DNA of 64,000 nucleotides from assembly GCA_951406725.2 (NCBI GenBank), contig OX597817.1:91264001-91328000 (forward strand). Direction: 5' to 3'. The notes under the pieces were generated by a model. It searched no databases. It saw only the letters and a list, made by a program, of their open reading frames with translations, and was not told the origin of the DNA. This DNA comes from Octopus vulgaris. Its lineage: Eukaryota. The first letter of the stretch is position 1. Every line of letters begins with the position of its first letter. Below, piece after piece: positions 5,158 through 63,500 of the stretch. The position numbers and the translations under genes are program-made.

Positions 5158-5440
5158 TATATTAATAGTTATCGCCAAGCTAACATGGCAGTCCAGGAAA
5201 ATAGGACGACTGCTGCCATTGATTAGCTCCAAAAGGCCATTGCCTCTTGCTAGCTATGTGACACACGAACCTGTGTCCATTATAACCTTCGCACAGGAGA
5301 AATTAGATGCTTCCCCTTGCTGGTCTGGCATCTACAGACTAGTTTCAGAGTATTTGCCCATTATCAATGTAGAGCAGCTGAACTGAGCAGGTATCACTAC
5401 TGACCGTCTGTTCGAAGGATTATTTACCTAAATTCATTGG
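5158..5440 (-). mobile_element. One-armed copy of the HHR-bearing foldback family at 14946-15355
   Basis: Aligns by eye to the reverse complement of ~15075-15355. Confidence 0.7.
5333..5371 (-). ncRNA. Type I hammerhead ribozyme, U3-A8 core variant
   Basis: Minus strand UACA-UUGAUAA-UGGG caaaua CUCU-GAAA-CUAG-UC-UGUA; GUC cleavage triplet. Confidence 0.6.
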
Positions 5441-54148: not shown

Positions 54149-54187
<39 letters not shown>

Positions 54188-54348
54188 TGGTTGTATACTG
54201 TCAACATAACGTGACAGTCCCTTAAGGGAATTACACCACCGCTGTTTAGCCCTAGGAAGCATCGACGCTTCCTTTCGGCTTTGACACAATTCCTGTGTCC
54301 TTATATTTGTGAAGGGGAGGCAAGCACCCCCACCAGCTAGGATTAACA

Positions 54349-54395
54349 CCTGAGAACATGCATGTTTCGGGGTCTTAACCCGTCATCAGCCCAGG
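54349..54395 (-). ncRNA. Type I minimal hammerhead ribozyme
   Basis: CCUGGG-CUGAUGA-C-GGGU uaag ACCC-C-GAAA-CAUGCAUG-UU-CUCAGG; palindromic stem III ACAUGCAUGU; GUU cleavage triplet. Confidence 0.75.
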
Positions 54396-54598
54396 ACAGT
54401 GAGATCTGCTGATTGAAATCTTTATTATAGGCACAATGGCCCGAATGAAGAGGGGACATAACAATACAATACAGGACATGGGGTACATATAACAAAAATA
54501 CAGAAAGGATGATATGAAATGAAATATTAATAATGAATTAAATGAAATGGCTTACGAGCCCCCCAAAGCTCGCAGTTACATTTACAATTACAATTGTA

Positions 54599-55607
54599 CT
54601 ATCTGGGGCGTTCGTCAGTAATGTAAGTGAGTAATTCATCCTGTTCTATAACGCCAGGCAAACTGTCATATTGAACGTAGTGCGCTATGCACACAGCTAT
54701 ATTTGAAAACAAATTTATTAATTTATTTACCATATCTTTATCCACAATTGCAGCCCATATTTGGTTATCGTATATCTTCGGGTTCAATTTCACTCTCGTT
54801 AGATTTTTCATTATCGCTAATTTTTTCTCAATTTCTTTATCCTTTTTGTACAACATTACAGCTCTGAGATTCTTTCCTTTTGGTCTTCCTCCTTCCTTGC
54901 ATGTTTTCAGACATTCTTCCACTTTTGTTGACCATTTATTCGTTTCCTCACACGTTGAACCTTCACTCACTTTCGTTGCTGTATCTCTCCCTTCGTGTGT
55001 TCGATCCTCTGTCTTGTCGGCAGACTTCTTTTTAGTTTTTTTCTTTTTTTGGTCTTTGGGTGGTGATTCCACCCATGTTTGCTTTCTATCCTCTTTTTCT
55101 TCTGTTCTTTCCTTTTCTTTCTCCTTCACCAACTCGTCGCCACTTTCCACATTATCTGTTATCACGATTTCCTCTTCCGCTTGCAATTCCACATTCTCCT
55201 TTTCTAACTCCTCTGTCAAAGCCTCCATTCCTTCCTCCAGTGTTATCATCTTCTCTTGTATTTCTCTTTGAGGACACACATCCTTCATGTGCCCTCTGCT
55301 CCTACATTTATAACACACTGGAGGTTTCCCCTCCACCACGACTCTCAGTCGTGTCTCATCGGGGAACACCAACTCCTCCAAGATGTTATACAAATCTGGC
55401 ATGGTTATGTGGACTGAAGCTTGCACCGCATAACCCCACCAGTTTATTTCTTTCGACTTTTACACCTTAAGAATGTCCATGCTCTCTTTACAGTTGTAGA
55501 TTATTGCAGCTACTATTCTTTCGGTATCAAGTTCCGGTGGGATTTTGCTTATCCGTATTCTCACAGCTCTTTTTCCACAATAACTAGGAAGTAAACCCAT
55601 TTTTCCG
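54599..55607 (-). pseudogene. L1/Tx1-type ORF1 (gag-like, single CCHC zinc knuckle), 5'-truncated, one in-frame stop at 55460-55462
   Basis: LPSYCGKRAVRIRISKIPPE...LRVVVEGKPPVCYKCRSRGHMKDVC (CX2CX4HX4C) followed by a charged tail; stop, then ~180-nt 3' UTR with AATAAA and no ORF2. Confidence 0.75.
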
Positions 55608-55894
55608 AGTGAGATCTGCTGATTGAAATCTTTATTATAGGCACAATGGTCCGAATGAAGAGGGGACATAACAATACAATACAGGACATGGGGTACATAT
55701 AACAAAACTACAGAAAGGATGGTATGAAGTGAAATATTAATAATGAATTAAATGAAATGGCTTACAAGCCCCCCAAAGCTTGCAGTTTCATTTACAATTA
55801 CAATTGTACTATCTGGGGCGTTCGTCAGTAATGTGAGTAATTCATCCTGTTCTATAACGCTGGGCAAACTGTCATATTGAACGTAGGATTCACA

Positions 55895-55941
55895 CTTGAG
55901 AACATGCATGTTTCTGGGTCTTAACCCATCATCAGCCCAGG
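55895..55941 (-). ncRNA. Type I minimal hammerhead ribozyme, second copy
   Basis: CCUGGG-CUGAUGA-UGGGU uaag ACCCA-GAAA-CAUGCAUG-UU-CUCAAG. Confidence 0.75.
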
Positions 55942-56260
55942 ATAGTGAGATCTGCTGATTGAGATGTATGTTCTCAGGTGTGAATCCTAGCTGGTGGAGG
56001 TGCTTGCCTCCCTTTCGCAAATATAAGGACACAGGAAATGTGTCAAAGCCGACAGGAAGCGTCGATGCTTCATAGGGCTAAACAGCGGTGGTGTAATTCC
56101 CTTACGGGACTGTCATGTTATGTTGACAGTATACAACCACTCTATCGCTCCACCACCACTCATGTCTCTTTGAGACATTTAGAAATTTTATATTTCTAAT
56201 TATAGTGACCAGTGAATAGATTTCACAGTAGATATATATATTTGCAAAGGCTAGACAGGC

Positions 56261-56360
56261 AATGACTAAGGAAAATAGTCTAATAAGCCCTCGACAAAAA
56301 AAAGCGGGCTTTCTGTCGAGGCTTACTAGCTCCATTATTATGCTATTTTCCTTAGTCATT
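56261..56360. repeat. 100-bp hairpin
   Basis: aatgactaaggaaaatag / ctattttccttagtcatt, with inner taagccctcgaca / tgtcgaggctta. Confidence 0.75.
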
Positions 56361-56547: not shown

Positions 56548-57677
56548 AAACAATACTGGGAGGATAAGAGATGGAACGAAGCGAAAATTCGAAAATTCGA
56601 ACGAACCCGATGCGAAGCGCTGTCAGACAATAGTGTAATAAATATATGCATTCATACAAACATATATGTACGTACCGACATCTACATGTATATATACATG
56701 CATATATAAATATATATATGTACAGGACACCACAAAAAGACATAAAACTCAATAGAAACGAAAACGGAAAAGCCATTTTGTTACAACAGAAAGACAGAGA
56801 CGTGGAACAGGACGAGAACGAAAATGGGCTGACAGCACTTCGCGTCGGGTTCGTTCGAATTTTCGAATTTTCGCTTTGTTCCGTCTCTTATCCTCCAGTA
56901 TTGTTTTATAATATAATTATGACACGAAATTCTCTCCCTTTGCTTTACCTTCCCCTCTCTCTCTCCCTCTTCCTCATCCTTCTCTCAGCTGCGTGTCTTC
57001 CTCTATCTATCTCTCTCTCTCTCCCTCACTCCTCCTCACTTTCGTCATTGCTAATCCTTTTGCACGTTGCTTTCAGGCCGTAAGGTCATGTTTCCCTGTG
57101 CTCACCAGTACCTCTTCCGTCCCAGCCAGAACAAAGGCCTTTCGTTTGTTTTCTTGTTTATTTTGATTTGTCGTATTGTATTTTATTTCTCGTTTTGTAT
57201 TTTCTTGTACCTGTATTTTTAATTTTGTATTTTTATCTTGTATTTTATTGTGCAGTTCTTTTGTTACGTCCTGTTTGTGTTACATTTTTTTCGTGCTTGT
57301 TTTTACCCCTCTGCGAGGTTATTTTATTTTAATTCTCTTGCAGGAAGGCCTAGTATTGACGAGTCGTGTCCTGTCTTGTCTTTGAAACATGCTAAGTCTA
57401 CTAGTGACAGCTGATGAAGGGGATTTTTCCTTGTGTAGCATGTCCTGTACCTTGCTTTTCTGTTGTAAATAATGTTTTTCCCGTTTTCGTTCTCGTCCTG
57501 TTCCACGTCTCTGTCTTTCTGTTGTAACAAAATGGCTTTTCTGTTTTCATTTCTGTTGAGTTTTACGTCTTTTTGTGGTGTCCTGTACGTATATATATTT
57601 ATATATGCATGTATATATACATGTAGATGTCGGTACGTACATATATGTTTGTATGTATGCATATATTTTATTTATTA

Positions 57678-60590: not shown

Positions 60591-63500
60591 ATCATCATCA
60601 TCATCGTTTAACGTCCGTTCTCCATGCTAGCATGGGTTGGACGGTTCGACCAGGGTTCTGGGAAGCCAGAAGGCTGCACCAGGCTCCAGTCTAATCTGGC
60701 AATGTTTCTACAGCTGGATGCCCTTCCTAACGCCAACCACTCCGTGAGTGTAGTGGGTGCTTTTTACGTGCCACCTGCACAGGTGCCAGGCGGGGCTGGC
60801 AACGGCCACGGTCAGATTGGTGTATTTTATGTGCCACCGGCACGGAAGCCAGTCGAGGCGGTGCTGGCATCGCCCACGAGTCGGATAGTGCTTTTTACGT
60901 ACCACCAGACCAGGGATCCTGGCTGGTTCAATTCGATTTCGATTCCGATTTCGCTTGCCCCAACATGTCTTCACAAGCAAAGGGGGTTGGCATGGGTGCC
61001 TGTCGTACGGTCGCATTGGAGTATTTTACGTGCCACGGCCGCGAGTCGGATAGTGCTTTTACGTACCACCAGACCAGGGATCCTGGCTGGTTCAATTCGA
61101 TTTTGATTTCGCTTGCCTCAACATGTCTTCACAAGCAAAGGGGGGTTGGCATGGGTGCCTGTCGTACGGTCGCATTGGAGTATTTTACATGCCACGGCCA
61201 CGAGTCGGATAGTACTTTTTACGTACCACCAGGCCAGGGATCCTGGCTGGTTCAATTCGGTTTCGATTTCGATTGCCCCAACATGTCTTCGCAAGCATGG
61301 GGGGTTGGCATGGGTGTCTGTCGTTGGGTGAGGTTCTATATCGACTTCGCTTGCCTCAACCGGTCTTTGTGTCCAAGGGAGGAAAGGCATTCATAAGTGG
61401 GCTGGGCTCACTTGTCCTGCCTGGTCTTCTCACGTACAGAATATTTCCAAAGGTCTCGGTCACTGGTCATTTCCTCAGTGAGGCCTAAAGTTCGAAGGTT
61501 GTGCTTCACCACCTCGTCCCAGGTTTTCCTGGGTCTACCTCTTCCACGGGTTCCCTCAACTGCTAGGGATTGGCACTTTCTCACACACCCATCTTCATCC
61601 ATTCTCGCCACATGGCCATACCAGCGCAATCGTCTCTCTCTTGCACACCACAACTGATGCTTCTTAGGTACAACATTTCTCTTAAGGTGCTAACGCTCTG
61701 TCGAGTATGTACACTGACATTACACATCCATCGGAGCATACTGGCTTCATTCCTCACGAGCTTACGCATGTCCTCAGCAGTCACGGCCCATGTTTCGCTG
61801 CCATGTAGCATGGCTGTTCGTACACACGCATGATACAGTCTGCCTTTTACTCTGAGCGAGAGGCCTTTAGTCACCAGCAGAGGTAAGAGCTCCCTAAACT
61901 TTGCCCAGGCTATTCTTATTCTAGCAGTTACACTTTCAGCGCACCCACCCCCACTACTGACTTGGTCACCTAGATAACGGAAGCTATCAACTACTTCTAG
62001 TTTTTCCCCCTGGAAAGTGACGGAAGTTGTTTTCTGCAGATTTTCGGAGGTTAATGCTCCCGAGCATCTGCCACATACAAAAACTATCTTCCCAGTTAGC
62101 CTACCTTTGACATTGCTGCACCTCTTATGTGTCCATAGCTTACACTGGGTACATCTTATAGAGTTTCTACCTACACCTTTTCTACAGATCGAGCAGGGCC
62201 ATCTTCCTGAAGATATTTGTGGATTGTCTACCTTTCTACTTATTAGTACTTTGGTTTTAGCTAGGTTGACTCTAAGGCCCCTTGATTCTAAACCCTCCTT
62301 CCACACCTGGAACTTCTCCTCCAGTTCTGATAGTGACTCAGCAATAAGAGCAAGGTCGTCAGCGTAGAGGAGCTCCGAGGGACAGCCTGTCTTGAATTCC
62401 TCCGTAATTGCCTGGAGTACTATGATAAATAGGAGGGGGCTGAGTACTGAACCCTGGTGGACCCCAACCTCTACTTTGAATTCTTCTGTGTACATGTTGC
62501 CAACCCTAACCTTACTTACGGCATCTCTGTACATGGCTTGCACAGTCCTCACCAGCCATTCATCTATCCCTAGTTTCCTCATTGACCACCAGATAAGGGA
62601 TCGGGGGACCCTATCAAAAGCTTTCTCCATGTCAACGAAAGCCAGGTACAGGGGCTTATCTTTGGCTAGGTATTTCTCCTGCAGCTGCCTTACCAGGAAT
62701 ATAGCATCAGTGGTACTTTTCCCTGGCACGAACCCAAACTGCATCTCATCTAAACTAACTCTCTCTAATTAGTTGGGCTATGACCCTCTCCGTAACCTTC
62801 ATTACTTGATCCAACAGCTTGATACCTCTGTAATTATTTGTATCTAGGGCATCACCTTTACCTTTGTAGCAGTTGACTAGTATGCTGCTGCACCAGTCAT
62901 TGGGTATGACTCCTTCGTGTATCACCTGGTTGACTATACGGGTGACTAGGTTATAGCCGACACTGCCAGATATTTTGAGCATCTCTGCAGTAATTCCTGA
63001 TGGGCCTGGGGCTTTCCCTGTCTTCATGCTTCTAATTGCCTTAGCTACCACGGAACTATCAACTCGGATAGCTGGTCCCTCTGTAGGGTCAACATTCGGC
63101 AGACTCTCTTTATCCCATTCATTTTCCTCATTCAGCAACCTTTCATAGTGGCGTCTCCAAGCTTCTCTCTTTGCATCCTCATTTAGCGCAAGTGAACCAT
63201 CCTCCATGCGAACACATTTCTCTCCTACCACATCACGATTCTCTCTCACACACTGTCTTGCAACACGAAATACCTCAAGTCTTTCACCCTCATGGCGCAG
63301 GACATTGGCAAATTTTCTCTTATCTGCTTCCCCTCTGGCTAGATAGACCTGTCTCCTAGCTTCCCTTCTGGCAGTCTGATACCCTTCCCTGCTACCACCG
63401 TTCTTCCAGGCCTTCCAAGCCTGTTTCTTTTGTCTAATAGCCCTGTCAACAATATTGTTCCACCACCACGTTATTTTGGGTCTTAAGGGGACTTTGCACC

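Follow-up and report, generated by a model that had tools for sequence, protein, structure and literature searches.

A hammerhead-bearing retrozyme as the probable preferred insertion site of ORF1-only and L1/Tx1-like LINEs in Octopus vulgaris

The stretch of DNA analysed here, hereafter the window, comprises 64,000 nucleotides of the 2.8-Gb Octopus vulgaris assembly (contig positions 91,264,001-91,328,000) and contains two broken ORF1-only LINE derivatives at one site of a hammerhead-bearing repeat of the retrozyme type. They were probably placed there by TPRT with ORF2 protein from L1/Tx1-like partners, at a site likely chosen as a TATA-driven transcription start. Comparison with other copies in the same genome makes us highly confident that the insertion of these elements is site-preferring.

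Read on the minus strand, the locus consists of an inverted arm, a 19-mer (S), a hammerhead, the short copy, S, the long copy, S, a further hammerhead and a tail. S is present in three identical copies on this strand, of which 54398-54416 was recognised by sequence comparison as the 3' copy of the target duplication of the long element, 55608-55626 acts both as its 5' copy and as the 3' flank of the short element, and 55944-55962 marks the start of the forward arm. The bounds given in the preliminary description for the two copies (55607 to 54417 and 55886 to 55627) were confirmed, as were the identity of the 19-mers on both sides of the long copy and that of the two 3' junctions, which agree across the 39 nt compared. 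The long copy (54417-55607, minus strand) is a 5'-truncated element corresponding to bases 489-1679 of a full copy of 1,679 nt (L019), and has therefore neither the 5' UTR nor the start of ORF1; it ends in a small stem-loop followed by AATAAAGATT. Its ORF1 remnant (54599-55607, minus strand) encodes one CCHC zinc knuckle (zf-CCHC, E 0.0013, below the curated cut-off) and contains a stop at 55460-55462. The short copy (55627-55886, minus strand) is the last 260 nt of a second element, and is joined to the upstream ribozyme by a 3-nt microhomology, CTA. Both copies are regarded as dead, given the missing 5' part and the internal stop of the long one, and no ORF2 match was found in the region that they occupy.

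The remainder of the locus belongs to the repeat. On the minus strand, a type I hammerhead motif with a palindromic loop III, a C-C mismatch at the base of stem II and a GUU triplet lies at 54349-54395, with a predicted cut after 54355, and is followed by the 3' part of the ~350-bp repeat unit (54177-54337), whose end, like that of most copies, is a (CT)n/(TA)n microsatellite. The second hammerhead motif (55895-55941, minus strand), identified by motif and comparison, probably comes from an upstream repeat unit. An inverted 5' arm on the plus strand (55964-56261) represents nearly a whole unit reversed; it extends beyond the 187-nt match first found and stops just before the 19-mer position. 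Within it, the TATA-like word TATATATATTTGC (56233-56245, plus strand) is a candidate promoter element of the repeat, located ~25-31 nt before the target site where units are intact, and the first bases of the duplication at 54398-54416 (TCAATC) resemble the initiator consensus. The locus had been thought to reduce to a simple foldback element once both copies are removed; this does not hold, because the inversion breakpoints of the repeat vary from copy to copy and the arm runs to 56261, and the arm is a 5' inversion of the Penelope type. The duplication of about 78 bp reported around the short copy is real (54338-54416 and 55884-55962, 79 nt with five mismatches and the whole hammerhead motif inside) but is probably not a target duplication. 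That reading was rejected because the other 67 duplications listed measure 11-30 nt and because there are repeats of two units in which the second carries an insertion, and the 79-bp stretch is probably two repeat units joined by a deletion. A two-unit repeat would have received two insertions in its second unit, would have lost ~1.7 kb between CTA microhomologies, and would have been laid down with a 5' inversion.

A search for the target repeat returned 1,853 candidates, 40 of which were scored, and the ~350-bp unit occurs in partial tandems that are often 5'-truncated or 5'-inverted. This matches the layout of non-LTR retrozymes, namely a short tandem or partial-tandem unit with no ORF and a type I hammerhead motif, and we refer to it as a hammerhead-bearing retrozyme whose self-cleavage is a prediction from sequence. 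Among 32 distinct motifs, both sides of stems I and II vary and 21 motifs have a self-complementary loop III, the stems having been part of the motif filter and loop III not. Rfam reported no ribozyme in the window and none in five loci at E up to 1, and in free folding the window motifs were no more stable than shuffles and did not form the full hammerhead, which leaves motif and covariation as the basis of the call. Homology links retrozyme families A, B and D; families C and F have little or no detectable similarity to them. No autonomous Penelope homologous to the repeat was found among the 30 of 150 GIY-YIG loci that were scored, the one strong hit being an inverted nested copy. Two Penelope-type elements with 781-aa frames (L313 and L318) have long 3' regions in which TGACGTC and ATTGG words are repeated many times before a TATA box.

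The inserted element is, as originally proposed, an ORF1-only one, and shares with HAL1-like elements a single ORF homologous to the ORF1 of an autonomous LINE and the lack of an ORF2. Full-length copies are ~1.65 kb long and consist of a short 5' UTR, one ORF of ~460 aa and a 3' UTR that ends in a small stem-loop, AATAAAGA and a few variable bases, with no poly(A); copies display target duplications and 5' truncation. The predicted protein has one CCHC knuckle (a match just under the curated cut-off), is 26-30% identical to the ORF1 of intact LINEs in the same genome (E 1e-29 to 1e-34), and falls into Atlas clusters of the ZCCHC3-type RNA-binding/CCHC kind (0.91-0.92). In seven copies picked for open frames, the N-terminal half of ORF1 gave dN/dS values of 0.07-0.36 in 21 of 21 pairs and is under purifying selection, with values of 0.24-1.81 for the C-terminal half. 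The 115 distinct 3' ends compared fall into four families (of 47, 21, 16 and 13) and 18 singletons, five of which are a SINE. Distant relatives in metagenomes (33 of 57 loci) showed no convincing hammerhead; as their flanks are mostly missing and they are only ~29% identical, they are uninformative about the target.

Tabulation of the 3' flanks bore out the expectation that the hammerhead repeat follows most copies. The word CTGATGA stands 12-40 nt downstream of 52 of 158 exact 3' ends, against none in a reversed-pattern control, and the association is thus not due to chance. The first 100 of these 158 ends yielded 99 distinct contexts, five of them SINEs. Of the remaining 94 ends, 70 are located in hammerhead repeats, 62 directly (46 before an intact core and 16 before a hammerhead repeat recognised by homology) and eight in tandem, where the target 20-mer is followed by another element; 24 lie elsewhere. 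For a control SINE with a similar end there was one regex hit in 30, which by eye was not a retrozyme. Empty sites are likewise present, at 26 of 30 target-repeat loci and with 26 exact empty junctions.

Further evidence comes from the duplications, 68 of which are listed; about seven rows look spurious by eye, and many loci are too short to include the 5' end. Leaving aside one row mislabelled by the regex (L261), 31 non-tandem insertions in retrozymes show 12-21-nt duplications in agreement with the local repeat variant, among them two truncated copies of 657 and ~114 nt (L013 and L115), each with its own duplication. If reverse transcriptase instead reached the 5' end of a retrozyme RNA and jumped to the 3' end of an element RNA, with no targeting of DNA, the junction would also fall at the start site, and a junction without duplication, such as the one at U1 described below, would fit. 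We nevertheless consider such template switching scarcely credible, and it is already disfavoured by the two-sided duplications, since filled sites keep the upstream part of the repeat together with a 5' duplication as long as those at single-copy sites.

Across about six repeat families, the site is used by four ORF1-only families as well as by intact L1/Tx1-like families of the APE-RT type, and in one case (L061) three different ORF1-only families stand in tandem ahead of a single ribozyme. A tree of 47 3' ends, in which nine of 44 branches have good support, requires 18 changes of target label, compared with a minimum of seven and 28.3 when labels are shuffled, which indicates repeated target switching with persistence. 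The clustering of labels and the weak support of the tree also mean that much of the count may reflect the copying of filled repeats, and such repeats are probably copied whole, given that the inverted arms of four loci (L032, L048, L138 and L260) repeat the element end together with its ribozyme. Taken to its limit, this would mean that composites of element and retrozyme, stemming from a few founder insertions, were multiplied by Penelope-type copying and that the association is mostly hitch-hiking, an account with which the near-identical composites at several loci also agree. As an explanation of the pattern we think it improbable: whole copying raises the counts, but it accounts neither for truncated copies that have duplications of their own nor for tandems of mixed families, there are many different junctions, and at least four ORF1-only and several autonomous families occur at the site.

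Site-preferring insertion extends to autonomous elements. Many open ORF2 frames of 1,130-1,148 aa came up in a search with zf-RVT, and at least three of 30 ORF2 loci (L190, L192 and L198) end at the retrozyme site, other L1-group families among the 30 showing no such preference. These partners have the traits of the L1 group, an ORF2 with APE, RT and a C-terminal zinc finger and an ORF1 with a CCHC knuckle, and the best solved relative of their ORF2 is human L1 ORF2p (E 1.6e-66). One young family, with an intact ORF1 of 512 aa and an ORF2 of 1,140 aa bearing APE, RT and zf-RVT, sits in another retrozyme with a 17-nt duplication and forms arrays. When the first 30 of 118 autonomous-group ends were judged by eye, 21 were in hammerhead repeats (five of them from one array), six in the 5' monomer of an RTE-type LINE, two in a third repeat and one elsewhere. 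Both this fraction and the 70 of 94 above exceed the value of >20% of flanks in one repeat that the available text of PMC4494074 uses as a criterion. The search for an autonomous partner also spoke for the proposal, in that APE-RT elements with a related 3' end occur at the same site. None of the autonomous loci examined has precisely the 3' end of the ORF1-only families; the layout of a stem-loop and AATAAAGA is common to both, the letters differ, and the folds are weak (-1 to -7 kcal/mol). Protein searches and the Atlas gave no named Tx1 relative, the Atlas returning generic clusters for ORF2. At L203-L205 (C2:73.04-73.07 Mb) and L251-L258, young LINE copies of 5.3 kb form head-to-tail arrays of two to five, with nothing but the target duplication between them.

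As to what defines the site, in most retrozyme rows the duplication starts 14-34 nt before the hammerhead core and 22-35 nt after a TATA-like word, words that fill 0.4% of 8-nt windows in the background, and the distance from site to core varies with the repeat family. A similar spacing recurs in two targets in which no hammerhead was seen, where insertions lie 26-30 nt behind a canonical TATAAA. One is a solo LTR with CCAAT boxes, which has TATAAAA ~30 nt ahead of the insertion base and received two different elements at the identical base (two of 17 exact sites, with none at a control site 30 nt further on). The other is the 520-bp 5' monomer of the RTE-type LINE, with TATAAA at -28 to -30; in L270-L289 this monomer is found in tandems of up to ~16 units (C5:94.29 Mb), each with a TATA box. 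The hammerhead repeats first suggested as the target hold 70 of 94 ends, but the target is wider and includes TATA-bearing repeats with no ribozyme. The TATA words of families A, B and D count as one case, these families being homologous. A third recurrent target, the repeat of L337-L348 with ~1,450 candidates, has no TATA box, and a TATA-like word stands upstream of only one of 11 single-copy-site insertions judged real; the spacing to a promoter element is seen in retrozymes, LTR and RTE monomer but not in the third repeat or at most single-copy sites. The L337-L348 repeat holds the 5' end of an old L1/Tx1-like element. Judged by these spacings, the target site is likely to be the predicted TATA-driven transcription start of the repeat, and the chances that start sites are the rule for these elements appear evenly balanced.

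Copies outside the recurrent targets bear on how the site is found. Of 25 off-target ends, 22 share at least 5 nt, and up to 21 nt, with a retrozyme junction behind AATAAAGA, although the end of the element itself may supply the first 2-4 of these nt, for which the control does not correct. Off-target copies thus carry bases of a former target, which suggests that read-through RNA primes by pairing. The ribozyme core or its cut site is never among the bases carried, the longest stretch being 21 nt, and the ribozyme is accordingly an unlikely maker of 3' ends, contrary to the earlier suggestion that it processes the transcript. It could still be supposed that the hammerhead cuts the element RNA and that the cut end or the fold guides insertion, as most ends lie close ahead of the core, the stems show covariation between families and most motifs have a palindromic loop III. 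This we also judge unlikely, in view of the bare off-target copies and the varying distance to the core, and the ribozyme is probably not the targeting signal because the same elements use TATA-bearing LTR and RTE repeats.

A different possibility is that a loose preference of the endonuclease, combined with pairing of the read-through tail, suffices with no promoter factor, the TATA spacing being a by-product of open, AT-rich DNA. The donor bases on off-target copies, which overlap the site by 1-7 nt at most resolved sites, agree with this, as do the fidelity of element subfamilies to target families, the one recurrent target that lacks a TATA box, and the many nick sites that read TC or AT by eye. 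It accounts less well for a spacing that is kept across the C, F, LTR and RTE targets, which have little or no sequence in common with A, B and D, or for two different elements at the same LTR base. We consider this account quite possible, though short of probable.

At L249 (C18:49051783-49051960), an autonomous element, 5'-truncated, stops precisely at +1 of a full U1 snRNA (Rfam, 125 bits) with no upstream duplication, and the 5' end of one ORF1-only copy (L020) carries the identical 20-nt U1 head; beyond these two, the 20-mer has no exact match in the assembly. One junction without duplication and one U1-headed copy give only a weak hint, and U1 was not accepted as a regular target.

The start-site reading suggests the following course of events. 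The element would be transcribed from the promoter of the repeat, with the RNA running on into the target; ORF1p would pack this RNA, and ORF2p would bind the stem-loop before AATAAAGA. The DNA would then be nicked ~22-35 nt behind the TATA-like word, and the read-through bases would pair with the nicked strand and prime synthesis, which would favour a return to the same repeat family. Filled repeats may finally be copied whole by the repeat's own Penelope-type route. More broadly, we tentatively propose that a lineage of animal L1/Tx1 elements is guided to Pol II start sites driven by a TATA box, plausibly through contact between ORF1p and TBP, and parasitises the promoters of retrozymes, LTRs and RTE 5' repeats; the ORF1-only families would have kept ORF1 as the address, and would gain a promoter and a ride on the retrozyme.

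Several known systems resemble this one in part. Target-specific Tx1 elements include Tx1L in Tx1D, Keno in U2, Kibi/Koshi, the crocodilian Tx1-Mar and Tx1-8_Crp in LTR elements; like the partners described here they are APE-RT LINEs that insert into another repeat and move non-autonomous partners there, with U1 heads possible, and their choice of target is ascribed mainly to the endonuclease (PMC4494074, available text). The octopus elements differ in using a hammerhead repeat and, at a fixed distance behind TATA, unrelated repeats. HAL1 (half-L1) elements are also non-autonomous, encode ORF1p only and form several separate families (PMC5753468, available text), whereas here the ORF1 is of the invertebrate L1/Tx1 type, no poly(A) tail was seen and there is a target preference. 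Position-specific insertion near a start site is found in Dictyostelium TRE5-A/NLTR-A and yeast Ty3, and TRE5-A, an L1-clade element, has an ORF1p that binds TBP, Brf1 and Bdp1 (PMC5911963, available text). TRE5-A may by analogy serve as a mechanistic precedent for promoter-guided insertion, although TRE5-A and Ty3 target Pol III genes while the octopus sites look like TATA/initiator promoters of mobile elements used in the same orientation. Animal non-LTR retrozymes and Penelope pLTRs have the short tandem units, type I hammerheads, partial tandems and inverted 5' arms of the target repeat, but are not described as LINE targets in the available text of PMC7229834, PMC3846280 and bioRxiv 10.64898/2026.07.22.740005, and here no autonomous Penelope partner was found among the 30 loci covered; the Penelope pLTR has TATATATA about 20 bp before an initiator-like word (PMC3846280, available text).

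There is thus precedent both for ORF1-only derivatives and for Tx1 elements whose targets are other transposons, LTR elements among them (PMC4494074 and PMC5753468, available text), and a 2026 repeat annotation of octopus reports active L1-Tx1 and Penelope families, with no targets given in the available part of its main text (PMC13282606). Full-text searches of the literature yielded no report of LINEs that target retrozymes or TATA start sites, though Repbase notes, supplements and subscription papers may hold one. A LINE lineage with young intact copies at predicted retrozyme start sites would be a new target class, and would form a three-level chain of parasites made up of an ORF1-only element, its LINE and a Penelope-type repeat. 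Site-specific LINEs are models of target choice and tools for gene insertion; if TATA spacing is the rule, these LINEs would be inserting position-specifically at animal Pol II promoters, and there would be a testable reason for the retention of ORF1 in HAL1-type elements.

Elsewhere in the window, a neighbouring nested inverted-repeat element (56559-57668) includes a hammerhead-like motif on the plus strand at ~57350-57405, and similar motifs occur at 5373 (minus strand, resembling another retrozyme family), 3975 (minus strand) and 2783 (plus strand); a weak RT match at 62199-62729 (minus strand, E 9e-7) marks another LINE fragment. A SINE that shares the GGCC-TTGT-GCC stem-loop (4,494 exact hits) was considered as a sign of a non-L1 partner and then set aside, the six flanks consisting of microsatellites or another SINE. 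Two SINE ends are abundant (L163-L168 with 4,494 exact hits and L349-L378 with 22,623), and their 3' stem-loop tails are common to ORF1-only elements and an L1-group family, suggesting SINE-LINE pairs.
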